This document shows, one piece after another, positions 8,044 through 30,896 of a stretch of 34,051 bases of DNA (position 1 is the first letter of the stretch; every line of letters begins with the position of its first letter). Source of the stretch: a virus. Under the pieces are notes generated by a model. It saw nothing but the letters and a program-made list of their open reading frames with translations, did not search any database and was not told where the DNA came from. The stretch is taken from positions 160,545-194,595 of the IMG/VR virus record IMGVR_UViG_3300048599_000816. One strand, written 5' to 3'. The translations under genes and the position numbers were made by a program.

Positions 8044-8187
8044 CTATTCTTCTTTCGATGTTTTTTCCTTACAAGAGTCACATATCATACGACCATTTAC
8101 TAAACTTGTAGCTGGATTTTTACCACATTCTTCACATAAACCTGAAGCTATTTTAATTGGTTGTGGTGTACCTTGTTTGTGAAACAT
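8044..8187 (-). CDS. Small zinc-ribbon protein (47 aa): MFHKQGTPQPIKIASGLCEECGKNPATSLVNGRMICDSCKEKTSKEE. Not in the ORF track.
   Basis: Hand-translated from the minus strand. TAAGGAGTTTTTTATG Shine-Dalgarno upstream. Two CxxC pairs (CEEC ... CDSC). Fills the gap between the ligase-like gene and the sigma-like gene. Confidence 0.5.
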   Translation of the reverse strand: MFHKQGTPQPIKIASGLCEECGKNPATSLVNGRMICDSCKEKTSKEE

Positions 8188-8197
8188 AAAAAACTCC

Positions 8198-9100
8198 TTA
8201 GAAATAAATACAGTCTTCTAGCTTTTTATCTTCTCGTATCTTTATATATCTTGCTTCTTGATATTTATCATCTTTACTATCTTTTTCTGACGCTAACATT
8301 TCGAAAACTTTTCCTACTAAAATTTCTTTATTATTGTACAATATTGTTCTTGTATCATACCCATGTACTGGTACATTCATTATTTTTGTAAGAACATTAT
8401 TTCGTAACTGACCACCTTCTAAAGCAACGATCATCTTTTTCAATTTTGGATCATCGCTCTCTACAAGTCCCATTACAGTCATAAAATAAGTTTGAGGAAT
8501 TTTATAAATTCTCCAAGCTGTACTTTGTTTAAAACTATATTTCGCAGCAAGGTCTTTAAAAACAAAAACCTTTATTTCGTTTCTTAATTGTTCAAAAACA
8601 CTTTTTTTATTTTTGCAAAAACCTGCTTGAATTTTGACTGTTTCATCTTCTTTAAATAATTTATTAAGTATAGTACGTCGATCAAATAAAGGCAAGTTAA
8701 AAACATCTTGTCCTGCACTATATATTATGTCAGTCACGTAAAACTGTGCACTTTTAGCAAGATCATCATCTATCTCACCGAGCTTAAGAAATCTAAAAGC
8801 TTTTGACCTGTCATTCTCAAATGTCAAGTAACCTTCAAACAAAGTTTGTTCAGGTAAATTATTTGCTTTTAATGAATTTACAATGTTTGTCAGACTATCG
8901 ATTTTAAATTGTTCTTTATAGTTTTTTTGCTTTCCATGAAATTTAATTTGACCAGAAGCACATACAAGACCTTGATAGCGAACACCTAAACGTATAGGTT
9001 CCATTATCCATTGGTCTGAATACCAAAACTTGTCTTGGTCACTCTCGTTATCAATAGAACCAACACTCCTTGCTTCCATTAGATTCACAAACTCAACCAT
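8198..9100 (-). CDS. ATP-dependent DNA-ligase-like nucleotidyltransferase (about 300 aa) with an apparently degenerate motif I.
   Basis: WIMEPIRLGVRYQG aligns to ligase motif I (T7-type AEIKYDGVRG) but with K to I and D to L. TLFEGYLTF resembles motif III, YVTDIIYS motif IIIa, PLFDRRTIL the R-rich segment, and FVFKDLAAKYSFKQSTAWRIYKI motifs IV-V. I place the start at the ATG at 9100 (MVEF...). That ATG has a GGAGA Shine-Dalgarno and overlaps the stop of the 118-aa gene (ATGGTTGA). The ORF-track start at 9181 has no Shine-Dalgarno. Confidence 0.5.
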   Translation of the reverse strand: MVEFVNLMEARSVGSIDNESDQDKFWYSDQWIMEPIRLGVRYQGLVCASGQIKFHGKQKNYKEQFKIDSLTNIVNSLKANNLPEQTLFEGYLTFENDRSKAFRFLKLGEIDDDLAKSAQFYVTDIIYSAGQDVFNLPLFDRRTILNKLFKEDETVKIQAGFCKNKKSVFEQLRNEIKVFVFKDLAAKYSFKQSTAWRIYKIPQTYFMTVMGLVESDDPKLKKMIVALEGGQLRNNVLTKIMNVPVHGYDTRTILYNNKEILVGKVFEMLASEKDSKDDKYQEARYIKIREDKKLEDCIYF

Positions 9101-9449
9101 TACAATCTCCAAAAACAAATTGAAATCTAGAAATCTTTCTTTTAAAAACATCTTTAAAAACAAATTTATTCTCATTTGCATAAAAACAAATCATATTAGG
9201 TTTGTCTTTAAAAAACATATATGCTCTACCTGTGTGCAATGCTCCAACACTAGAACATTTTTGTAATAATTGCGTCACTTGGCATTCTATAGATTGCATT
9301 GCAATATTATTTATACAAGAAGTTAAATGATTATTATAGATATGCACAATTTGATTTGAAAAATCAGGTACTATAGAAGTGTCAATACACATACTTTCAT
9401 CAAATTCTATTTGCAAATTATCTTCAAATTTGACAACTCTTGCACGCAT
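9093..9449 (-). CDS. Hypothetical protein (118 aa).
   Basis: ORF track. Its start overlaps the NYN gene stop (TAATG) and its stop overlaps the ligase-like start. Confidence 0.4.
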   Translation of the reverse strand: MRARVVKFEDNLQIEFDESMCIDTSIVPDFSNQIVHIYNNHLTSCINNIAMQSIECQVTQLLQKCSSVGALHTGRAYMFFKDKPNMICFYANENKFVFKDVFKRKISRFQFVFGDCNG

Positions 9450-10057
9450 TATTTCTTTCCATCAAACATGAAAGATTCATCAATTTCAAAAAATTTTGAA
9501 GCAACATTTTTCAACTCTTGTGAAGTAACATTCTTATTAGCAGAAAAAGAATATACTTCTACTTGAATATTTTGCAACTTTAAATACTCTACTAATGCTA
9601 CAAAATCACCATCACCCGAGACTAAAACAACAGTGTCAAGAGCATCTTTCTTAGTGATGATATCTATTGCCATTTCAATATCTAAATTGCCTTTTGCTGA
9701 CCCATCACTTCTTTTTTTCAAATCTTTTGAAACTATATTGTAACCAATCTGTTTTAAAAAACTAACAAAACTTGTATTATCATTATCTCCTTTTACAAGA
9801 TAAGCATTTGAAACACAAAGTTTTCTACCTTTAGTAATGCATTCAGTAAGTTTCTTAAAATCTATTTTTTTCTTAAAATTATCCATTGCACCATAATAGA
9901 CATTTTGAACATCAACAAAAATCCCAACTCTTTCGTCAGGTGTGTTTCTGTTCTCTACTCTTACTTGAAACAAAAAATCCCCTTTAAGGGAATCAACAGC
10001 TTCAAGTAGTTTTTTATAGTTCTGTATTTTACTTTCTTTCATTTTTTCCCTTATCAT
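9449..10057 (-). CDS. NYN (LabA-like) domain protein, a putative RNase (202 aa).
   Basis: VGIFVDVQNVYYG ... VLVSGDGDFVALVEYL ... G..V: this is the conserved Asp pattern of the NYN/PIN-like fold. Confidence 0.6.
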   Translation of the reverse strand: MIREKMKESKIQNYKKLLEAVDSLKGDFLFQVRVENRNTPDERVGIFVDVQNVYYGAMDNFKKKIDFKKLTECITKGRKLCVSNAYLVKGDNDNTSFVSFLKQIGYNIVSKDLKKRSDGSAKGNLDIEMAIDIITKKDALDTVVLVSGDGDFVALVEYLKLQNIQVEVYSFSANKNVTSQELKNVASKFFEIDESFMFDGKK

Positions 10058-12732: not shown

Positions 12733-14922
12733 TTAATAGCCTACTTTTTCTTCGCCAAGTTCAAAAACACATTTGATACCATCAACAACAAGTTCGCAAT
12801 TCTCTCTGCTTGTGAATTCTTTAAACCATTTGCGACCAAGTATGACAGCCATTTTTGTTTTTTGAATATTTGAACGAAGTGATCTCAACTTTTTCTGTTT
12901 CTCTCCAATAGTTTTTTCAAACCATGAAGCAATTTCAGCTTTATCTTTGAGTGTTGCTTTTGCGTTTTCCCACAATGTGATTCCTGTTTCAATCAATGCT
13001 TCTGAAGCTGTTCTTGATTTATTTGAAGCAATCTTTTCCATGACTTTTTTGACAGTGGGCAATGTAGCAATACCTGACAATTTAATATCAAAAGTTTTAG
13101 CCATGTAAAAATCTACAGGGTCAGCTTTATCTGTTGGTGGAGAATAAACTCCTCCTCGTTCAACAAGAATACCATTCTCTTTTAAGAACAAAGCTTGTTC
13201 CTCAGTAAAATTTGATGGTACTTCTTGCTCATCACCAAGAACATCTGACTTTAACCACTTAAGAGCTTTAATCTCACCCTTAAGCTTCTGTTCAGCAAGA
13301 ACATTTTTGCAAAGTTCTTCACCTGAAATATCATCACCAGCAAGAACTCTATTGATTGCAGGAAGTTTTCCAAGATCTATTGCATAAACTTTTGATGTTT
13401 TAAAATCATCATCAACAACAATGCCTTCGTTCTTGAATTTCTTGTATGACTCTTGTGAAGAAGTAAGATAGAACACTTTTGTATGGGTATGACCATCTTT
13501 TACGAAAGTATAGTTTCTAAAAACGTAAGTCGGATATTTGTCAATAAAACCCATTTGAGCTGCAGTTTTACCATTTGCTTCATGAAGGTCTATTGTACCT
13601 TTTATTGAAGTTTGAACTGACAAATTAAGACGACTTTCATGCCATACTAAAGTATTAAATGGACACTTACTTGTTTTATCTGCATAAAACTTGCTGTATC
13701 CGTCTTTTTCAGATGATTTTACACCAATTTTCTCATACGCAAACTTTTCGTGATACGGGAAAAAAGCACTTTCAGAATCTTCTGTTAACATATTTAATGC
13801 ATCATACACGCAAAAAGCGTCAGCTTTGGGAAGATAAGTTGCATCACGTCCACATGTGAATCTTGAACTTACATCATTTACAGACTTGCTTATAAATTCT
13901 TCAGTTTCTCCAAACTCTTCAACCATAAAAGCGTTATTAAGCTTGTCAATGATAGCTTTATCCCCAGCTTTTCCAACAATCTCCATAGCAATATCAGTTT
14001 TAGTTTGTTGACTCATTATCAATGCAGCACCATAAATTGCTTTTGCTAATGAATCTTGATTTGACCCAAAATCTACTTTCAAGAGATCAACTTTGTCCCA
14101 AGACTTTGTGTTTGGTTTCTCTGTTGTAAGATAATAGATTTTTACAGGCTTTCCTTTTTCTGGTGCAACATAAATTTTGTCATCATCAAGAGAAAGCGAA
14201 ACAACACCCTGATCAGTAACAGAAAAAATTGCTAAAGTATTTGAAAATAAAGGTTCGACTTCTTCTTTAGGTTCGCTTGAACTTGACATATCAACAAGTT
14301 TTACAATGTGATTTGTAAATTCTTTGACATTTGAACTGTGAATCAACATAGCACCAAGTTTTTCAGACATTTGCGCCATCAACTCTTTGTTGTAATAACA
14401 ACCACAACCTATCAACATTGCTGTATGAATTTTACCTTTGATTTTTTTGATAGAAGCAAAAATTGTATCTACTTCTTTTTTGTAGTTGCTAACAACAGGA
14501 TAACCATCAGTAAAAAGACAAAGCGAAAAGGTTTTTGATAAAACAGACAAATCGTTTACGACAACATCAGTATCAGTGAGAATTTCACTAAAACATGTAG
14601 TGCCTCTTGTTGTGTTGTTCTTTTTAATTGCAGCTTCAAGCGATTTATAATCAGCATTGTCAACAATTCTAAATCCTTTAAAAACCCAATTAAAATCACC
14701 TTCGCTGCTAAACCAGCCCAATGACAAAGAATCTCCTTTTGGGATCTTCTTTGATAACGTGATAAGTTGATCACAAAGTTCAGTAATCAACCCGTACATT
14801 GAACCTGATCTATCATAGATCCAAATATGATTTACAGGTTCTTTTTTTGCAACAATCTTTTTTGATTTTATTTCTTGTTCAACCAAAACAAGATCATTGT
14901 CAAATTTGACATACTTTGGCAT
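12733..14922 (-). CDS. Large von Willebrand factor A (vWA) domain protein with an intact MIDAS motif (729 aa).
   Basis: N-terminal IWIYDRSGSM (DxSxS), then TTRGTT (Thr), then LCLFTDGYP (TDG) make a complete metal-ion-dependent adhesion site. The remaining roughly 500 aa are unrecognised. Confidence 0.6.
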   Translation of the reverse strand: MPKYVKFDNDLVLVEQEIKSKKIVAKKEPVNHIWIYDRSGSMYGLITELCDQLITLSKKIPKGDSLSLGWFSSEGDFNWVFKGFRIVDNADYKSLEAAIKKNNTTRGTTCFSEILTDTDVVVNDLSVLSKTFSLCLFTDGYPVVSNYKKEVDTIFASIKKIKGKIHTAMLIGCGCYYNKELMAQMSEKLGAMLIHSSNVKEFTNHIVKLVDMSSSSEPKEEVEPLFSNTLAIFSVTDQGVVSLSLDDDKIYVAPEKGKPVKIYYLTTEKPNTKSWDKVDLLKVDFGSNQDSLAKAIYGAALIMSQQTKTDIAMEIVGKAGDKAIIDKLNNAFMVEEFGETEEFISKSVNDVSSRFTCGRDATYLPKADAFCVYDALNMLTEDSESAFFPYHEKFAYEKIGVKSSEKDGYSKFYADKTSKCPFNTLVWHESRLNLSVQTSIKGTIDLHEANGKTAAQMGFIDKYPTYVFRNYTFVKDGHTHTKVFYLTSSQESYKKFKNEGIVVDDDFKTSKVYAIDLGKLPAINRVLAGDDISGEELCKNVLAEQKLKGEIKALKWLKSDVLGDEQEVPSNFTEEQALFLKENGILVERGGVYSPPTDKADPVDFYMAKTFDIKLSGIATLPTVKKVMEKIASNKSRTASEALIETGITLWENAKATLKDKAEIASWFEKTIGEKQKKLRSLRSNIQKTKMAVILGRKWFKEFTSRENCELVVDGIKCVFELGEEKVGY

Positions 14923-14950: not shown

Positions 14951-16111
14951 CTAAGTGTTTATAATATCAGCTAAAATTTCTTCACCTGCTTTTAGTACTT
15001 CTTCTTTAAGATCAATTTCAGATTGTTCTACATAACTTCTAAACATTTCAACATAATTAAGTTCTTCATTATGTTTTATTTTTATTTCGCTTTGCTCTTC
15101 ACGAACTTCTTGAATACTTTTCCCTATGTAATTCCAAGACTCTTCTTCAAGAAACTGTTCAAGTCCAGTAAAATTTATCAAACTTTTATCTTTTTCTCTT
15201 ATGACTGCTTTCAATCTCACAATAGATTTACTTAAATCCAAGTCTTGAACTGATTCACAAAAGCCTGCCATTTGCTGTCTTGGATCATCAAGAAGATCAA
15301 CAAACAACGTCTTGAACTCTCTATCTTCTATCTCAATAAAAGTATCTTCAGCGTCACGAACAAAATAAAAACCTTTTTTCTCACCCTCTTCTCCAAAATC
15401 AACTTTAGCAATAGAGCCCACATGTCTACAAAAAAAGTTCATTTCTTGTTGTTTGTGTATGTCACCCAAATATACTTTAGTCCAAACATTTTTATCGAAA
15501 ATTGCTAAAGGAAGAACTCTATTACATTTTTCATCCATTCCCATATCGAAACTTTGACCTGCTACAGATTTATCTGTAGCATAATGCCCAAAAAAGTACT
15601 TAAATTTCTTTTTACTTTGTACAGCTTTTTCAGTCAAACTCTTAATGTTTGTTATAACATAGTCATGAAACTGTTTTGCTTCAATATTTGCATCAAAAGG
15701 ATTAACATGAGGCATGAAACAAAAAATCGAATCTTCAACTTCTATAGCAGTGGGTTGGTCGATGACATAAAGATTTTCTATTTGTGTACTAAGTTCTACG
15801 AGCTCAACAAGATCGTGGCCATGAGATTTTCCTTGATCATGATTGCCGAGAAGTAAATAGATTTTTATGTGTCTATCTAGCGCCCATTCAATTTTTGAAG
15901 AAAGTAATCTTCTAAAAATTTGTGCAGGTCGTTTTGTATGGTAAAAATCACCCAAAATCATCACTGTACTTATTTTATTTTGATGTGCATAATTTAGTGC
16001 TTGTTGAATATTATCTAGAATGTCTTGCGTTCTAGAGTCATAACCCAAATTATTCATTTTACCATATTTGTAGCGACCTAAATGAATATCTGATAATAAT
16101 ACCATTTCCAT
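14951..16111 (-). CDS. sbcD: SbcD/Mre11-like calcineurin-fold nuclease (386 aa).
   Basis: Phosphoesterase motifs SDIHLG, LGDFYH and GNHDQ. Confidence 0.85.
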   Translation of the reverse strand: MEMVLLSDIHLGRYKYGKMNNLGYDSRTQDILDNIQQALNYAHQNKISTVMILGDFYHTKRPAQIFRRLLSSKIEWALDRHIKIYLLLGNHDQGKSHGHDLVELVELSTQIENLYVIDQPTAIEVEDSIFCFMPHVNPFDANIEAKQFHDYVITNIKSLTEKAVQSKKKFKYFFGHYATDKSVAGQSFDMGMDEKCNRVLPLAIFDKNVWTKVYLGDIHKQQEMNFFCRHVGSIAKVDFGEEGEKKGFYFVRDAEDTFIEIEDREFKTLFVDLLDDPRQQMAGFCESVQDLDLSKSIVRLKAVIREKDKSLINFTGLEQFLEEESWNYIGKSIQEVREEQSEIKIKHNEELNYVEMFRSYVEQSEIDLKEEVLKAGEEILADIINT

Positions 16112-16120
16112 AATAAATCC

Positions 16121-16576
16121 TTATGCTCTAGAGTTACTAGACTGATCTGTAATAGGTTCGAAATATGCACGCATATTATTCTGTTCTCTATTAGAGATTT
16201 TCGGTTGTTCTATTTTTATATCCATTTTTTCATGTAAATCACTCGTAACAGCAAGTATTTGATCTAAACACTCAAGTATATATCTATATCGAATCACAAT
16301 TTCATGCCAAACAAGCCCTTTTTGAGCTTCAGCGAGTAGCATTTTTTCTTTTAACTGTTGTTTTAACCAAAAAAGACTATGTTGACCGTCAGGCATTCGT
16401 AGATCAGATTTACTTAGCAAAACAAGAAAATCTTGAATGTCTTCATTTGTAGCTTTTGTAATTTGAAGATTTGGTTTATTTAAAACTTGGGAAAGTAACC
16501 AATTGACAGAAATTTCATCATCAAAGACAAAAACTCCTTCTTGCTCATCATAATGATATTTCTTATCTTGCTTCAT
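16121..16576 (-). CDS. Hypothetical protein (151 aa).
   Basis: ORF track. Stop/start adjacent to the homing endonuclease gene (TAAATG). Confidence 0.45.
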   Translation of the reverse strand: MKQDKKYHYDEQEGVFVFDDEISVNWLLSQVLNKPNLQITKATNEDIQDFLVLLSKSDLRMPDGQHSLFWLKQQLKEKMLLAEAQKGLVWHEIVIRYRYILECLDQILAVTSDLHEKMDIKIEQPKISNREQNNMRAYFEPITDQSSNSRA

Positions 16577-17410
16577 TTATTGACAAGATAGACATCTTTT
16601 TGCATTATGAGCTTTAGCTACAAAAAGATTATTACATTTGATGCATTTTTTTTCATACAACTTGGGATTGTTTTTTTTCGTATCACTAATTTTTTGTTTT
16701 GATTTTTCAGTATGAACCTTTCCAAAAAACGAATTACCTTTACCTTTTGTCCGAGCACTAATATTCTTTTTTACTTCTTCTGAAAACTTCTTACCCTCAA
16801 GACTTTTAGTTATTTTTTGTTTAGACTCTAAACTATGTTTTTTGCCAAACATTCCGTTATTTTCACCAGAAGAAGCACGACTTAATTTTCTTTTATGAGA
16901 TTTAGAAAGAACTCTACCTTTATTTGCATTACTTACTTTATCTTTTGCTTCTTGCGTATGTTTTCGTCCATACATACCATTTTTTTCGCCTGCTCCCTTG
17001 CCTTTTCTGTTTCTTTTTAACTTTCTAAGCGATTTATCAGACAAATTATGTATTCCGTCACCACCATCTGTCAAATTTGTTAAAGGCCCAGTTTTTAAAT
17101 CTATTCTACCAATTGATTTTATTAACTGTATTTCAAGTTTAGAAGCATCAACAAAGCTCAAATCTGTTTTTATTTTAATTCTAAAAGCATCTACACCTGT
17201 TTCTCTTTTAATCTTACAAATTTTATTTGCTTTTAATTTATTTGAGTCTTTATGTTTGTAAGCAGACTGTAAGTGGTGATCTATTCTATTTTCTCTTCCT
17301 AAACCTATATAAAAGGGTTCAAATGAAAACAAATTATCAAAAACAATTGGTTTTCTTGGATCTAAATATGCATAAACATAAAAATCAGTTTTTTGACGAT
17401 TTAATTTCAT
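16577..17410 (-). mobile_element. Free-standing GIY-YIG homing endonuclease gene with three C-terminal NUMOD3-like repeats (277 aa).
   Basis: FYVYAYL ... FYIGLGRENRIDHH is the GIY-(10-11)-YIG motif plus a conserved Arg. The repeats are GEKNGMYGRKHTQEAKDKVS, GENNGMFGKKHSLESKQKIT and NSFFGKVHTEKSKQKIS. No Shine-Dalgarno. The 5' end overlaps the ruvC-like 3' end by 26 nt. Confidence 0.8.
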
Positions 17411-22849: not shown

Positions 22850-24406
22850 TCAATTTTTTATTGCATCAACAAAATATTGTGGGAAAAATTTTCTATTTTG
22901 TTTAAGAAAGTAATTAAATTGACTATCCATGATGTAGATCGTGCAAAAATCTTTTTCATGTCTTACACCACGACCTGCAGCTTGAACAAGCGTCAAAGCT
23001 GTTTTCCACTTATACCATTCACTATCAAGCTCCATACGTTTTTTTATTTGTTTGTCTCCCAAAAACATAAATGGCAACTTAACTATAACAACAAATCTTG
23101 CAAGATCGTCTTTTAAATCAACACCTTCTGTCATTGAAGGTGTGATCAAAACTTTAGGCTCTTTTGTTTCTAAAAAACCTTTAAGTGCGTTAATTCGAGA
23201 TTCACTATCATGTAAAATTAATCTTGATTGATACTTAGGATCGACGTTTTCTTTTATGTAATTTGCAATTTTATAAGAATGTGCATGAATCAATCCTTTT
23301 TCTGAATCATGAAACTCTAAAATCCTGCCTATATCAAAAGCTATTTTGGGTAAAGATTCTTCAATGTCGTTTTTTCCTAAATTCCCAGACCTTGTTAATA
23401 TGATTGGTCTTATATCTACAGGAAATGAAGAAGGAACTTGAATAAACTTTGTCTTCTTAATATCTAAATCTAAATTTTTACAAAAACTATCTTTATCAAG
23501 AATTGTCGCTGACATAAATAGTTTTTTTTCAGCATGCCTAAAAAGTAAATTTTGAGCAAAAAACCCGACAGTTAAAGGTTTGAAAATAATTGTTTTTGAC
23601 CTTAACTTTTCGTTAGTTGTTATATCAAAGATCCACTCTATTTTCCCATAACTCTCCAAAAACATTTTTACACGTTCTTGTTGACTTATTAAGCTCTCAA
23701 GCTCTTTTTGAAGGTCAGAAATTATTGCTACATCAAGAAATTTGTTTTTCAGTTTTTCTGTAGTTTCTTTTCTTCTTTCTTTTATTTTCTCTTGAAGCAT
23801 CTTTAACCACTCGACATATTCTTCGAGTTTTTCATATAAAGGTATTTTTGAAGTTACACCAAGTTTTGAAAGATTGAAAGACGAAAAACTAAACTCAACA
23901 AACGACATACACTCATTATCTAAACTATGTGCTTCATCACATATCAAAAGTTTTCTATCAGGAAAAGTATTTGTGTAATTTGTAATACAAAGAAAGTACT
24001 TATAGTTCATTAAAGCAACAAAAGATTCTACAGCTTGTTGTTTTGCAACTTCATAAAAGCACTCGGGTTTTACAGGACATTGTTTTGTAGAACAATATGA
24101 ATCTTCACATGTAAAATCAGGAAGCAATTTGCAAGGATAGTTGTTTCTACCTTTAAGAACTCTAACTCTACCCGAACTATAATCTTTTATGTATTGATCT
24201 TGAAGTATTTTTTGCGACGTTAAAAGGAAAGCAGATTTATAATAAAGTCCCAGACAAATTGCAATAGCGCTTTTACCTGAACCTGTAGGGCTTTCCAAAA
24301 CAACATTCTCTATTTCTTCAGAATCTAAACTCTGTTGTATGTCGAGAATTGTTTCTTTTTGAAAAGGTCTGAACGTCGTGTGTGGGAAAAAATCGAGAAC
24401 GCTCAT
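22850..24406 (-). CDS. XPD/Rad3/DinG-family SF2 helicase with an inserted 4-Cys Fe-S domain (518 aa).
   Basis: Walker A SPTGSGKSAIAI. DEAH box LICDEAHSLD. Between them sits CKLLPDFTCEDSYCSTKQCPVKPEC. C-terminal motif VI QAAGRGVRH. Confidence 0.75.
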   Translation of the reverse strand: MSVLDFFPHTTFRPFQKETILDIQQSLDSEEIENVVLESPTGSGKSAIAICLGLYYKSAFLLTSQKILQDQYIKDYSSGRVRVLKGRNNYPCKLLPDFTCEDSYCSTKQCPVKPECFYEVAKQQAVESFVALMNYKYFLCITNYTNTFPDRKLLICDEAHSLDNECMSFVEFSFSSFNLSKLGVTSKIPLYEKLEEYVEWLKMLQEKIKERRKETTEKLKNKFLDVAIISDLQKELESLISQQERVKMFLESYGKIEWIFDITTNEKLRSKTIIFKPLTVGFFAQNLLFRHAEKKLFMSATILDKDSFCKNLDLDIKKTKFIQVPSSFPVDIRPIILTRSGNLGKNDIEESLPKIAFDIGRILEFHDSEKGLIHAHSYKIANYIKENVDPKYQSRLILHDSESRINALKGFLETKEPKVLITPSMTEGVDLKDDLARFVVIVKLPFMFLGDKQIKKRMELDSEWYKWKTALTLVQAAGRGVRHEKDFCTIYIMDSQFNYFLKQNRKFFPQYFVDAIKN

Positions 24407-24855
24407 ATATGCTCTATATCTTGTACTTTTGATTTTACAATTTTATCGAAATATGAGGGCTTTATTTTCACTACACGCTTTCGTATTTCAACTATAATTC
24501 CATCTATATTTGAAAGATCACCTTGTTTTATAATTACATGATCCCCTGTTTTAAATAACGAAGGTTTTGTTTGTTTTAATTCTACGTCAGTAACAGATAG
24601 CTTTTTAATTTGTGCTGATGTAAATTTTTGCGGACCTTCTTTTTTCGTCCCAAGAAATTTCAATACACCTTCAAAAACTAAAAAATTACTTACTTGTTGT
24701 GGTAAAATAGCAGTAGTAGAACGAATAAAAATATAACCTGAAAGCTCTTCTGAAGTAAACACTTCTTGAAAAGCCAAACTTTTTTGTTTTGAGACTAATT
24801 GATCTCTAATATATTGCTCAAAACCTTGGCGGACTAAAAGAATATACCAACTCAA
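24403..24855 (-). CDS. NusG-like transcription elongation / antitermination factor with NGN and KOW domains (150 aa).
   Basis: WYILLVRQGFEQYIRDQL resembles the NusG WYVVQAFSGFEGRV segment, and SGYIFIRS resembles PGYVLVQM. The C-terminal KOW is FKTGDHVIIKQGDLSNIDGIIVEI. ATGA overlaps on both sides. Confidence 0.65.
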   Translation of the reverse strand: MSWYILLVRQGFEQYIRDQLVSKQKSLAFQEVFTSEELSGYIFIRSTTAILPQQVSNFLVFEGVLKFLGTKKEGPQKFTSAQIKKLSVTDVELKQTKPSLFKTGDHVIIKQGDLSNIDGIIVEIRKRVVKIKPSYFDKIVKSKVQDIEHI

Positions 24856-27388: not shown

Positions 27389-28148
27389 TTTTAGCACACG
27401 TCTTTTTATACTGACAAAAATAACAATCACCTAGTCTTGAATTCAATTTAGGTTCTTTTGCAAAATCTTTCTTTGATATTCGTTCAAGCATATTGTTAAT
27501 TTGTCTAAACAAACTATTAAAATCTTCTTCAGTTCTTTGTGTAAACAAAATATCTCCATCAATAGGATATGCAAGCGCTCCATGAATTGATTCTAATGGA
27601 TATTTATATAGTTCTTTAATGAAAAAACTATAAAAAGTGATTTGTGTATTGTTGTCAATATCTTTCTCTTTGCTTTTTGAAGATTTCCAATCAAGACAAA
27701 TGATTATTTCATTGTTCTCAAGAATAATATCAATCCTACCTGACAAAAAAACATTATCAAGATAAGGATTAATAAAGGGTATCTTACAATATTTTTCTAT
27801 TTCAACTACTCTAAAACCTTCCCAACGTTTTTTCATTTTCTTGACATTTCCAATTTGCAATAATCCCTTAACTAAACAATCATCAAGTTCTTTTGCATTA
27901 GGAAAATTTAAACCCTTTGCTTCTGTACAAAAAGCTATAAACAATGCTTTCCAAGATGAAGCAATTTCATCTAAACTCATTCCATACTTGAAATGTAATT
28001 CTAAAGCTTTATGTAAGACTGAACCAAAAGTCGTAAAAATATATGCTTCATCAGCTGGTCTCTCATCAATAAACTGCCATTTGTACATTTGCGAACATTT
28101 AAAAAACGAAGACAAAGATGATGAAGAAACTGTTAAATAATCTCTCAT
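27372..28148 (-). CDS. Cas4/RecB-family PD-(D/E)xK nuclease with a 4-Cys Fe-S cluster (258 aa).
   Basis: One N-terminal Cys (FKCSQMY) plus C-terminal CYFCQYKKTC (Cx2Cx5C). GRIDIIL...ICLDWKSSK is a D...D-x-K core. TQITFY is a QhxxY motif. Confidence 0.6.
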   Translation of the reverse strand: MRDYLTVSSSSLSSFFKCSQMYKWQFIDERPADEAYIFTTFGSVLHKALELHFKYGMSLDEIASSWKALFIAFCTEAKGLNFPNAKELDDCLVKGLLQIGNVKKMKKRWEGFRVVEIEKYCKIPFINPYLDNVFLSGRIDIILENNEIIICLDWKSSKSKEKDIDNNTQITFYSFFIKELYKYPLESIHGALAYPIDGDILFTQRTEEDFNSLFRQINNMLERISKKDFAKEPKLNSRLGDCYFCQYKKTCAKNDREL

Positions 28149-29446
28149 GATTTCATCTCGTTAAACAAAAACTCTACTGCTTTTTCATTTACTGTACCAA
28201 TGTACATCGAGTTATAAGGTATTTTATTTTGTAACAGATCTTGCTTAATTTTTGCCTCTCTATTAGAATCAAATTTTAAAAGATTTGTAATTCTCATTGT
28301 ATAAGCAACAACTTCATCTTCTGTAGCTTTGATATCAAAATCCTTAACAATCTGTTCTATAACAAGTGACGTCTTCACTACTTGAATTGTACGAGGTGTT
28401 GTGTTTACGATAAAACTTTCTTTTGTTACTTTGCTTTCTTTTTCAAGTTGTCCTTCAGTTTTCCCCATACGTCTCAATAAAGCTTCCCACTCATTATCAT
28501 TTTCTTTATCGATCATCACTTGTGGAATTGGTGAAATTTCTGATTCATCAACAATTTTTGAAAGAATGACTTTTTTAAACGTATCAATTGATTTCTTTTG
28601 TTTTTCATCAAGTAAACGAATTTTCAAATTATCTTCATAAGCTTGAATAGAATCAAAACCCTTTGATTTTGCAAAACTGTCATTATAATCAGGTGCGACT
28701 TTGTATTTTATTGCATTTAGTTTTACAGTAAATATAACTTTTTTACCTGACAATTCTTTACTATGATAATCAACAGGGAAAGTCACATTTACTTGACGTA
28801 CTTCGTTAATTTTCATTCCGACAAGTTGATCTTCAAAATTATCAATAAATTGCTTTCTTCCATTGACAAGATCATTTACTCTAATCTGATAGTTCTTTGC
28901 TGTTCCACCTTTAAAAGGTGTTGTTTCTCCATCAAGAACACCTTCAAAATCTATTAAAGCAATATCAAGATTTTCTAAAATTTCTTTTGTAGAGTCGTGA
29001 ATTGTTTCGCTTTGTTTGATTTCTGCATCAATCTTCTCTTTTAACTCAACATCAGAAATAGTTGTTGCTTCAAGTTTCTCTGTTTCTTTTATCTTATCTA
29101 ATGAAACAAGTTTGACAGTCGGTTTTACTTCAGCAACAAACTCTATAGTAAGTGTTGATTTTCTTTTTAAATCTCCAAAGATCTTAAAATCTCTAGTCGA
29201 GACAAGACTAGTTTCTAATGTCGCAATGTCTCTAACAATCTGATCAATCATTGATTTATATAAACGTTCAACGCCAATTTTAGTTTCAGCAACATCTTGA
29301 GGTACACAACCTTTTCTAAAACCTGGTACTTCGATTTCAGACTTTACTCGTTCGTAAGCAGCTTTCTTTCTTTCATTCACATCATCAGCATCAACTGTGA
29401 CAATGTATTTTACAGGTGTTGGCATTTTTTCTGTCTTAATGTCCAT
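28145..29446 (-). CDS. tig: Trigger factor homologue: ribosome-associated chaperone with a PPIase domain, full length (about 433 aa).
   Basis: N-domain signature VPGFRKGCVP (trigger factor GFRxGxxP). FKBP-type middle domain: IDFEGVLDGETTPFKGGTAKNYQIRV...FIDNFEDQLVGMKINEVRQVNVTFPVDYHSKELSGKKVIFTVKL. C-domain: DSFAKSKGFDSIQAYEDNLKIRL and TIQVVKTSLVIEQIV...ATEDEV. Start placed at the ATG at 29446, with AAGGAG 7 nt upstream. The ORF-track start is 29491. Confidence 0.8.
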   Translation of the reverse strand: MDIKTEKMPTPVKYIVTVDADDVNERKKAAYERVKSEIEVPGFRKGCVPQDVAETKIGVERLYKSMIDQIVRDIATLETSLVSTRDFKIFGDLKRKSTLTIEFVAEVKPTVKLVSLDKIKETEKLEATTISDVELKEKIDAEIKQSETIHDSTKEILENLDIALIDFEGVLDGETTPFKGGTAKNYQIRVNDLVNGRKQFIDNFEDQLVGMKINEVRQVNVTFPVDYHSKELSGKKVIFTVKLNAIKYKVAPDYNDSFAKSKGFDSIQAYEDNLKIRLLDEKQKKSIDTFKKVILSKIVDESEISPIPQVMIDKENDNEWEALLRRMGKTEGQLEKESKVTKESFIVNTTPRTIQVVKTSLVIEQIVKDFDIKATEDEVVAYTMRITNLLKFDSNREAKIKQDLLQNKIPYNSMYIGTVNEKAVEFLFNEMKS

Positions 29447-29450
29447 TATA

Positions 29451-30896
29451 CTACTCCTTGTCTTTCTCGACAACTGTCGAAGATGCTTCATCTACTCTTG
29501 AGTCATATTCAAATCTCATAATATCGAATTTTTTTATAAAAAACAGTTTTGAAACACGTGAGTCTCTTGTCTTAGGAAAATCAAGACATGCTGTTTCATC
29601 ATCTCCTGTGATACCCATCATATTATCTACATTGTGTCCAAGTTTATCAGTGAAAGCTGCATCCATAGAATCAACTTCTTTACCGTGTAAATGTCTTTTG
29701 TGCGACTCTCTATTAAACTGACTTGCTCCTATAATTGGAATACTTCTTGATCTTGCAAGCAATTTTAGATCCCATGAAATTACTCCTACAGGATCGTCTG
29801 ATTTTCTATCGCTTGGTGTCATTAAATAAATTGGATCTATAATTAAAAGGTCAACCCTTTTACCCGAAACATTTTCGAAAGCAGTAATTCTTGAGTCGAT
29901 AAATTGACAATTGCAATTTTGAGGTGCATCAATTATCCAGTAAAAATTTGAATGATCTTCTTTGAGCTTCTTCATTTTTCGTTCTATTAATTGTAGCTCT
30001 TCATCGCTCATTAAATCTGGTGTCTTAATTTTATTGTATGCTACTCTTGTGACTAAGGATGTGAATCTATTTCTTTGTTGCACTAATGGCATTTCAATTG
30101 TGACATAAATGATATTGTAACCTGATTTATATGCATTATAACCAAAATTCAAAAGCAAAATAGATTTTCCCATACCTGGTCTACCAAGAACCAAAGAGAA
30201 CTCACCAGGTTGCCAACCACCAGTTGCTTGATCTATTTTTTTATAGCCTGTAGTTATTCCTTGGTATTTTTCAGGGTTTTCGCGTTTTTCTTTTAACTGC
30301 TCTATATACAAGTCAACGTCTTGAACAACATCTTCTTCTATAACTCTATATTTTCCATTAGAAAGAAGAACTTTATTTACAGAGTCTTGTATGTTTTGTG
30401 CCAAAACCATTGCTTCGTGTTTTTCGTCTACAAAGTCATGTTTTAACTGTTCATTTATTTTCAAATTAATGTCAAGAAGACTTCTATAAAAAAACTTCTC
30501 TTTTAATTTATCATACATTGGTTTAAAAGATTTGCTCTCAAATCTGTATGAAAAAATCTTCTCTAAAACTACCTTTTTTTGCTCGTACTCTTCTTGTTCT
30601 TTGTACTTAGATTTTAGCTCATCAAATAAAAAACTTTTAGATACACATTCTGAAAAAGACACAAAATTTTCTTGTAGTTTAGAAAACATCCATTGTTTAA
30701 AATCTGATGTGAATACTTCTTTAGGTAAGCCCAAAAATGTTACGTAAGACAAATTTGAGTTTATCTCGTCAACATCTGTTTTCATATCAAAATCATTATC
30801 GAAAACAAGCAGTCTTAAAACTTTACATTCTAAAACAACATCGACAAATGGTTTTGTATTTTCACTTGGAGCATCAGTTTGTTTTCTTGAAATCAT
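29451..30896 (-). CDS. dnaB: DnaB-family replicative DNA helicase (481 aa).
   Basis: GEFSLVLGRPGMGKSILLLNFGYNAY...VTIEMP (Walker A / H1). Downstream H2-H4-like motifs. Confidence 0.85.
   Translation of the reverse strand: MISRKQTDAPSENTKPFVDVVLECKVLRLLVFDNDFDMKTDVDEINSNLSYVTFLGLPKEVFTSDFKQWMFSKLQENFVSFSECVSKSFLFDELKSKYKEQEEYEQKKVVLEKIFSYRFESKSFKPMYDKLKEKFFYRSLLDINLKINEQLKHDFVDEKHEAMVLAQNIQDSVNKVLLSNGKYRVIEEDVVQDVDLYIEQLKEKRENPEKYQGITTGYKKIDQATGGWQPGEFSLVLGRPGMGKSILLLNFGYNAYKSGYNIIYVTIEMPLVQQRNRFTSLVTRVAYNKIKTPDLMSDEELQLIERKMKKLKEDHSNFYWIIDAPQNCNCQFIDSRITAFENVSGKRVDLLIIDPIYLMTPSDRKSDDPVGVISWDLKLLARSRSIPIIGASQFNRESHKRHLHGKEVDSMDAAFTDKLGHNVDNMMGITGDDETACLDFPKTRDSRVSKLFFIKKFDIMRFEYDSRVDEASSTVVEKDKE

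Follow-up and report, generated by a model that had tools for sequence, protein, structure and literature searches.

What remains of a DNA ligase once its catalytic residues are gone? The stretch of viral DNA analysed here (the window; 34,051 nucleotides, positions 160,545 to 194,595 of the IMG/VR record IMGVR_UViG_3300048599_000816) derives from a huge phage and encodes a 300-residue protein, referred to below as the pseudo-ligase. Profile searches and a predicted structure allow us to assign it with confidence to the ATP-dependent DNA ligase fold, with an adenylation domain and an OB domain, and its sequence provides good support for catalytic inactivity. We favour, with moderate confidence, a scenario in which this pseudo-enzyme was derived in place from a phage ligase and has been kept to bind DNA nicks or ends without catalysis, or to serve as a scaffold. 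A preliminary description of the locus had proposed a dead ligase-like protein within a four-gene nucleic-acid processing cassette, and had considered an RNA ligase as the alternative.

Fold and active site of the 300-residue protein

The relationship to DNA ligases emerges from several kinds of comparison. In a single-sequence Pfam search, PF01068 matches the protein with an E-value of 1.7e-5 and 25.0 bits, slightly below its cut-off of 26.2; phrog_114, a family of ATP-dependent DNA ligases, matches with an E-value of 4.4e-7, and the NCBIfam ligase models reach 20-41 bits against cut-offs of 218-989. A profile of 25 homologs retrieves archaeal and human DNA ligases from the PDB (best E-value 1.1e-7), and profile-profile comparison by hhalign with 37 lysine-bearing relatives spans 280 columns at a probability of 100% and an E-value of 1e-47. 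The AlphaFold2 model (predicted local distance difference test score 88.9, predicted template-modelling score 0.77) consists of an alpha/beta N-terminal domain and a beta-rich C-terminal domain, an OB domain as in DNA ligases. All 50 PDB matches listed by Foldseek are DNA ligases (best E-value 1.8e-16), including archaeal ligases, those of African swine fever virus, T4 and Chlorella virus, LIG1, LigD and Lig E; in a viral structure library, every named match among those listed is a DNA ligase as well (best E-value 8.5e-20). No RNA ligase or capping enzyme is found among the Foldseek matches listed. The ligase-like similarity noticed earlier thus goes far beyond chance in the Pfam, PHROG, PDB profile, AlphaFold2/Foldseek and hhalign comparisons.

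A database search yielded 24 homologs of 46-96% identity, and a profile search of 1.84 billion representative proteins yielded 686 relatives; the best 150 of the 686 listed, together with the earlier homologs, made up a set of 173 proteins, which was aligned to the family profile with hmmalign. Motif I, which in active relatives has the form E-x-K-x-D-G-x-R, reads EPIRLGVR in the window protein. The register originally proposed for EPIRLGVRY was reproduced by hmmalign and, independently, by hhalign, confirming the replacement of the motif I lysine by Ile36 and of the aspartate by Leu38. The lysine loss is a property of the whole family and not a one-off: among close homologs, the column of I36 is occupied by I, V, T, M or G and never by Lys, and in the larger alignment Lys is found in 71 of 74 distant relatives as opposed to none of the 41 members of the clade to which the window protein belongs. 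Similarly, the column of L38 holds Asp in 68 of 75 distant relatives, but almost never in the clade.

The degradation extends to motifs III, IV and V. At the position of the motif III glutamate (column of Y91), Glu is present in 82 of 87 distant relatives and in 0 of the 41 clade members, which carry Tyr, Phe, Ile or Asn instead. The segment TLFEGYLTF, previously likened to motif III, does lie in the motif III region; its Glu, however, falls on the Asp column of the canonical L-D-G-E, and Tyr91 stands in for the essential Glu. The Glu-Gly of motif IV, seen in distant relatives, is replaced in the clade by a variable residue followed by V, S or T (K177 and V178 in the window protein), and the first lysine of motif V (column of I198), found in 87 of 115 distant relatives, is mostly Ile in the clade.

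Other residues have been kept. Close homologs share an invariant P35, G39, R41 and Q43, and across motifs I to V the protein retains E34, G39, R41, K57 (motif Ia), D124 and Y127 (motif IIIa), K182 (motif IV) and K200, the second lysine of motif V, which is mostly kept in the clade. At K57, the basic residue at the motif Ia position is aligned to the Arg of S-R. Motif VI is kept in the close clade as R-x-D-K (R284, R289, D291, K292), the first Arg of the canonical R-x-P-R being Gln281 in the window protein. In ligase structures, the positions lost here carry out nucleotidyl transfer, and several of the residues kept contact DNA or hold the domains together. Compared with the minimal ATP-dependent DNA ligases (T7, Chlorella virus, LigD, Lig E), the pseudo-ligase has the same two-domain fold, length and genomic slot, and likewise has motif IIIa, most of motif VI, the Lys of motif IV and the second Lys of motif V; it differs in having lost Lys and Asp from motif I, Glu from motif III, Glu-Gly from motif IV and the first Lys from motif V.

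With catalytic positions degraded clade-wide in motifs I, III, IV and V, the earlier suggestion of a dead ligase-like protein stands on firm ground. As its defining catalytic features are missing and its scores fall below the Pfam and NCBIfam cut-offs, the protein cannot be filed as a functional ligase. Some JGI names for close homologs nevertheless read "ATP-dependent DNA ligase", a label which is probably wrong for this clade and which would lead metabolic reconstructions to credit huge phages with a ligase of their own.

The lysine-less clade and its genomic slot

Is the pseudo-ligase an old, maintained gene or one on its way out? In a simple neighbour-joining tree computed from the profile columns, the window protein groups with P0001-P0040 in a single lysine-less clade that reaches down to about 29% identity and whose 41 members (29-96% identity) include none with the motif I Lys. 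Two small lineages stand beside it, each degraded on its own: P0042/P0044, in which D or E takes the place of the Lys, and P0060/63/71. Further out are the lysine-bearing P0041 (EKKYDGRR), P0045 (EPKVNGRR) and P0048 (EPKISGRR), followed by ordinary ligases. The lysine-bearing sisters at loci L011 (P0045) and L025 (P0048) have K-x-N-G or K-x-S-G in place of K-x-D-G; they may be intermediates toward inactivation, or else unusual active ligases.

Thirty-two positions of the pseudo-ligase are invariant among 25 close homologs. These invariant residues, together with conservation down to about 29% identity, rule out a decaying pseudogene, and by these sequence measures the pseudo-ligase is a maintained gene under purifying selection. 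It diverges about as fast as the adjacent SbcC gene (48-96% and 56-88% identity to the window, respectively); the constraint is tighter on NYN (77-99%) and on the sigma-like protein (82-99%).

The order SbcC, NYN, pseudo-ligase, zinc ribbon, sigma-like was found, using local profiles, in every close-clade locus with flanks (about 16 distinct ones), and the contig of the distant lysine-less P0031 has a gene order identical to that of the close clade. The cassette as first delineated does not hold as a four-gene unit: its 118-residue open reading frame (ORF) is a lineage-specific insert absent from most relatives, and the conserved array is longer, running from SbcC through NYN, pseudo-ligase and zinc ribbon to the sigma-like gene. 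The sister loci, a small sample of four (L011 with P0045, L013 with P0041, L025 with P0048 and L026 with P0042), show SbcC, ligase, in part the zinc ribbon, and the sigma-like gene, without NYN. In L011, SbcC abuts the lysine-bearing ligase directly; in L011 and L013 the lysine-bearing ligase is followed by both the zinc ribbon and the sigma-like gene, and in L025 and L026 the sigma-like gene alone was detected after the ligase. A sigma-like gene follows the ligase or pseudo-ligase in all loci. This shared slot identifies the pseudo-ligase as the positional counterpart of an active-looking phage ligase, whereas NYN, missing from the four sister loci, appears as an addition accompanying the main lysine-less clade. 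Since the zinc ribbon also follows lysine-bearing ligases, it goes with the ligase slot itself, not with the loss of activity.

The family is sparsely represented among known viruses. A tblastn search of the 300-residue protein against 50,697 deposited phage genomes gave no match, so that there is no cultured or annotated relative to draw on. IMG/VR holds only two loci for the pseudo-ligase family, and a metagenome scan with an alignment of the family (A1) recovered 11 loci; single-protein scans with P0045, P0041, P0048, P0042 and P0031 gave no matches. Relatives are found on contigs of 424, 192, 149, 112 and 78 kb, one of them from an activated-sludge metagenome. Two relatives, P0005 and P0012, are filed at NCBI under one 'Candidatus Nanoarchaeia archaeon' metagenome-assembled genome (PHF86_07775 and PHF86_04535); as their contigs are huge-phage genomes, one of them a 424-kb IMG/VR viral genome, this assembly appears to hold mis-binned phage contigs.

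Possible roles of the pseudo-ligase

What could a ligase fold without its chemistry do for the phage? In the scenario we favour, the ancestor would be the phage's own minimal ATP-dependent DNA ligase, residing in its original slot, which would have lost self-adenylation and nick sealing, the gene being retained by purifying selection across a deep clade of huge phages. Within the machinery for replication and recombination (Rad50/Mre11, RecA, RuvC, FEN), the resulting protein would bind DNA nicks or ends or act as a scaffold, and would cooperate with the downstream zinc-ribbon protein; the NYN nuclease, acquired by the clade just upstream, may be a further partner. Nick sealing would be left to another ligase, from the host or from elsewhere in the phage genome of roughly 427 kb. 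The retention of residues that contact DNA or nucleotide (R41, K57, K182, K200 and the R-x-D-K of motif VI) argues for this scenario, as do the slot shared with active-looking ligases, the setting among replication and recombination genes, and a natural fusion of the pseudo-ligase to the zinc ribbon (P0018, see below). Several points speak against it. We infer the role of the pseudo-ligase from sequence, with DNA binding and protein partners deduced from homology and gene order only, and in a phage module packed this tightly, gene adjacency says little about physical interaction. The fusion was seen on one contig only. The tree carries no support values, which makes the single-loss scenario provisional, and the second ligase, whether encoded by these genomes or otherwise relied on, is presumed. 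Finally, another lysine, such as the nearly invariant K57, might reach the nucleotide pocket, although this is unlikely.

Precedents exist for ligase folds that matter without catalysis. The poxvirus protein A20 (vaccinia) or A22 (mpox) contains an inactive ligase domain which is a structural part of the polymerase holoenzyme (bioRxiv 10.1101/2023.09.03.556150). Like the phage protein, it is a viral, inactive adenylation-plus-OB unit, and it uses this unit structurally in DNA replication; there, however, the domain is part of a larger protein linking the polymerase E9 to the uracil-DNA glycosylase D4, whereas the phage protein stands alone, at 300 residues, in a tailed-phage genome beside Rad50, NYN and a zinc ribbon. 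A20/A22 is absent among the 50 Foldseek PDB matches listed and serves as a functional analogy only. Likewise, catalytically dead DNA ligase IV (Lig4) still supports end joining, with another ligase doing the sealing (PMC9638927, PMC10858965, PMC11754673), so that its presence on DNA ends matters independently of catalysis. Yet Lig4 is normally active and its dead versions are engineered, while the phage pseudo-enzyme is naturally fixed. Pseudo-ligase domains are therefore already known, in poxviruses, but for tailed phages our literature search turned up no description of a stand-alone pseudo-ligase shared by a whole clade. It represents a natural, deeply conserved conversion of a ligase into a pseudo-enzyme in a tailed phage, with lysine-bearing sisters still occupying the same slot, and so offers a clean system for asking what a binding-only ligase fold does, whether it recognises nicks or ends, scaffolds Rad50/Mre11 or a nuclease, or controls how long nicks last. 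A protein of ligase fold able to recognise but not to seal nicks could also serve as a nick-detection reagent.

A more specific version of the binder scenario, which we regard as unlikely but worth serious attention, makes the pseudo-ligase a targeting subunit that would clamp nicks or 5'-phosphate ends and recruit or activate the NYN nuclease as its obligate partner, for instance in processing recombination intermediates or in degrading host or damaged DNA. Such a pairing would fit the finding that NYN lies directly upstream wherever a lysine-less locus has flanks (in L004 and L005 start and stop overlap by 4 nt), its absence from the four lysine-bearing or sister loci, and the intact acidic motifs and high conservation of the nuclease. 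It is difficult to reconcile with the unrelated inserts of 0-800 nt at the NYN-ligase junction, which loosen any coupling, and with the P0042 lineage, which lost the lysine without having NYN; moreover, NYN domains are mostly known as RNases, and no fusion of NYN to the pseudo-ligase was seen. Alternatively, the protein could be a nick protector or decoy, which would occupy nicks without sealing them, block the ligase of host or phage as well as Rad50/Mre11 attack and thereby set nick lifetime, with nick-dependent late transcription via the adjacent sigma-like factor as a possible output. In T4, the ligase gp30 and the gene 46 exonuclease jointly set whether late transcription needs replication, nicks being the loading sites of the activating clamp (PMC2988020). 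By analogy, a nick reader in our phage would bind nicks unsealed, shield them from Rad50/Mre11 and connect, via the zinc ribbon, to the sigma-like factor to license late transcription, as a ligase-derived counterpart of the clamp, nick and gp55 coupling of T4; we hold this to be a long shot. Protection of nicks in general strikes us as rather improbable too. It would account for the loss of chemistry with retention of DNA-contacting residues and for the constant position of ligase or pseudo-ligase between SbcC/Rad50 and the sigma-like factor; this adjacency, however, also holds for lysine-bearing ligases and is hence independent of inactivity, the sigma-like protein matches sigma-70 region 4 with no detectable link to T4 gp55, and the idea is built wholly on analogy.

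Could the protein still be an enzyme? A relocated nucleophile, for example K57, might sustain ligase or nucleotidyl transferase activity, or the protein might perform the last step only, on pre-adenylated ends; we consider this very doubtful. Ligase mutants with the lysine changed to alanine can seal pre-adenylated nicks, and K57, K182, K200 and the R-x-D-K of motif VI are conserved. Relocation of a lysine is known in other enzyme families (pseudoenzyme review PMC10211241). However, five catalytic positions, spread over motifs I, III, IV and V, have been lost jointly throughout the clade, which makes residual catalysis via a relocated lysine unlikely; K57 aligns with the motif Ia Arg, a DNA-phosphate contact and not a pocket residue, and is Q in P0021, and no lysine is invariant across the wider lysine-less clade. 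Farther still from what we observe is an RNA ligase paired with an RNase in an RNA repair or processing module, a reading which is largely refuted and to which we assign next to no probability. It was motivated by the KFHG tetrad at residues 53-56, which had been put forward as a possible Rnl2-type motif I, and by the fact that NYN domains are typically RNases. Neither K53 (K, R, S, D, C or N among close homologs) nor H55 (H or L) is conserved, and the KFHG segment aligns with motif Ia of DNA ligases (F-x-S-R) in both hmmalign and hhalign. The C-terminal half is a beta-rich OB domain, as opposed to the all-helical C-terminal domain of Rnl2, and the fold and all named structural matches are those of DNA ligases with an OB domain. 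The ligase partner of the supposed module has degraded catalytic motifs, and its neighbours are DNA replication and recombination genes, with no kinase/phosphatase, RtcB, Hen1 or tRNA genes nearby.

Neighbouring genes and the replication block

All four ORFs first described for positions 8044-10057 are present on the minus strand where they had been placed (Table 1), and the plus strand opposite holds short AT-rich ORFs only. The stop/start overlaps reported between them are real: NYN and the 118-residue ORF share TAATG, and the latter overlaps the pseudo-ligase by 8 nt (ATGGTTGA).

Table 1. Positions of the array and of further genes in the window
Feature	Position	Strand	Remarks
Sigma-70 region-4-like factor, 234 aa	7336..8040	-	begins 3 nt past the zinc-ribbon stop
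Zinc-ribbon protein, 47 aa	8044..8187	-	CxxC...CxxC; AAGGAG Shine-Dalgarno
Pseudo-ligase, 300 aa	8198..9100	-	ligase fold (adenylation + OB), degraded active site; starts ATGGTT
118-aa accessory ORF	9093..9449	-	variable slot between NYN and pseudo-ligase, overlaps both
NYN nuclease, predicted (LabA-like, PF01936)	9449..10042; ORF to 10057	-	197 aa from likely start
SbcC/Rad50-like ATPase, 758 aa	10062..12338	-	conserved neighbour upstream of the array
729-aa protein	12733-14922	-	phrog_2426 at 1.9e-118; weak VWA-like match
GIY-YIG/NUMOD3 homing endonuclease	16577-17410	-	between RuvC and Mre11
NusG/Spt5-like protein	24403-24855	-	
Trigger factor homolog, full-length	28145-29491	-	Trigger_N, FKBP_C, Trigger_C; phrog_26774; between DnaB and PD-(D/E)XK nuclease

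The assignment of the upstream protein to the NYN domain was correct: PF01936 matches over its full length (profile positions 1-144 of 145) with an E-value of 2.7e-35 and 122.5 bits, far above the cut-off of 24.2. Translation probably begins at the ATG at 10042, because all relatives begin with MKESKI. The acidic motifs FVDVQN, GNLDIE and SGDGDF are present and conserved in all relatives, and FVDVQN, D-I/V and SGDGDF are aligned in the match to the uncharacterised Vibrio protein VPA0982 (PDB 2qip; E-value 9.3e-24). Judged by these motifs, the protein is probably an active nuclease. It is a full-length member of the LabA-like NYN proteins (PF01936; VPA0982), from which it differs in an N-terminal extension of about 35 residues and in adjoining a pseudo-ligase. 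PADLOC returned a match only to its generic NYN model, and none for the pseudo-ligase, the 118-residue ORF, the zinc ribbon or the sigma-like protein.

The zinc-ribbon ORF is a real, conserved gene, also called as such in other assemblies. Its pattern is MxFxKxG[TSA]PQP...CxxC...NGxxxCxxC, and both CxxC pairs are found in every full-length member of 20 aligned sequences except that of L011, in which the first pair is CxC; the L018 sequence is cut at the contig end. No Pfam family matches above its cut-off. The Shine-Dalgarno sequence emphasised earlier is indeed strong, with AAGGAG 7 nt before the ATG, but it is not exceptional, since such sites precede 13 of 32 window genes. In the fused gene mentioned above (P0018; L008, 3072-4133), a stop-loss change of TAA to CAA (stop to Gln) joins the pseudo-ligase to the zinc ribbon, and the internal Shine-Dalgarno sequence and ATG are kept, the ribosome-binding site being in frame.

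The 118-residue ORF has only three homologs in 5.8 billion proteins, with 100, 78 and 64% identity, the identical copy being located on a 426,911-bp JGI contig, probably the genome from which the window comes; family searches gave no match, and fold searches nothing meaningful. The ORF is an accessory insert of narrow range, and its slot is variable: the gap between NYN and ligase can be anything between 0 and about 800 nt long and is filled by small ORFs that differ from phage to phage. This insert hot spot (window 9100-9449) has an equivalent gap in L001, L007, L009, L014, L016, L018 and L019. In L001 the gap holds ORFs of 90, 59 (Lar-like zinc finger) and 66 residues, the last being part of a frame-split remnant of the 118-residue ORF. 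At the other end of the array, the sigma-like protein, which matches sigma-70 region 4, is encoded by the most conserved gene of the array.

The window as a whole is AT-rich, with about 30% GC, all its substantial genes lie on the minus strand, and Pfam and PHROG family matches of the neighbours mark it as a replication/recombination block of a huge phage. The gene order is: the C-terminal part of a helicase, a DnaC-like loader, the DnaB helicase, a trigger-factor homolog and a PD-(D/E)XK nuclease; DnaG primase, a NusG-like protein, an XPD-like helicase and a FEN-type 5'-3' exonuclease; an HU-like protein, SSB, RecA, RuvC and a GIY-YIG/NUMOD3 homing endonuclease; Mre11/SbcD, the conserved 729-residue protein and SbcC/Rad50; and finally NYN, the 118-residue ORF, the pseudo-ligase, the zinc ribbon and the sigma-70 region-4-like protein. 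A promoter scan returned 36 promoter-like sites, no excess over the 29.3 +/- 6.5 of a shuffled background, and a terminator scan three terminator-like matches, all within the NYN gene; with scans no better than background, operon boundaries rest on gene spacing alone.

Several other genes of the block deserve mention. The trigger factor, a ribosome-associated chaperone, is an unusual gene for a phage. The GIY-YIG/NUMOD3 gene is also present in the 96%-identical relative (L009 1427-2260) and missing from the RuvC-Mre11 slot of L001, L004 and L005, so that it looks like a recent mobile insertion. In the window, L001 and L009 the 729-residue protein is encoded between Mre11 and Rad50, and in L003 directly upstream of Rad50; it is not in the Mre11-Rad50 position of L004 and L005. 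It may be an accessory factor of Mre11/Rad50. In the 424-kb relative (L001), though not in the window, a TnpB/OrfB_IS605 (Cas12f-like) gene is located a few kb downstream of the array (15039-16307). Lastly, the phage has a NusG/Spt5-like protein of its own alongside the very highly conserved sigma-70 region-4-like protein, a pair suggesting that it controls the host RNA polymerase.

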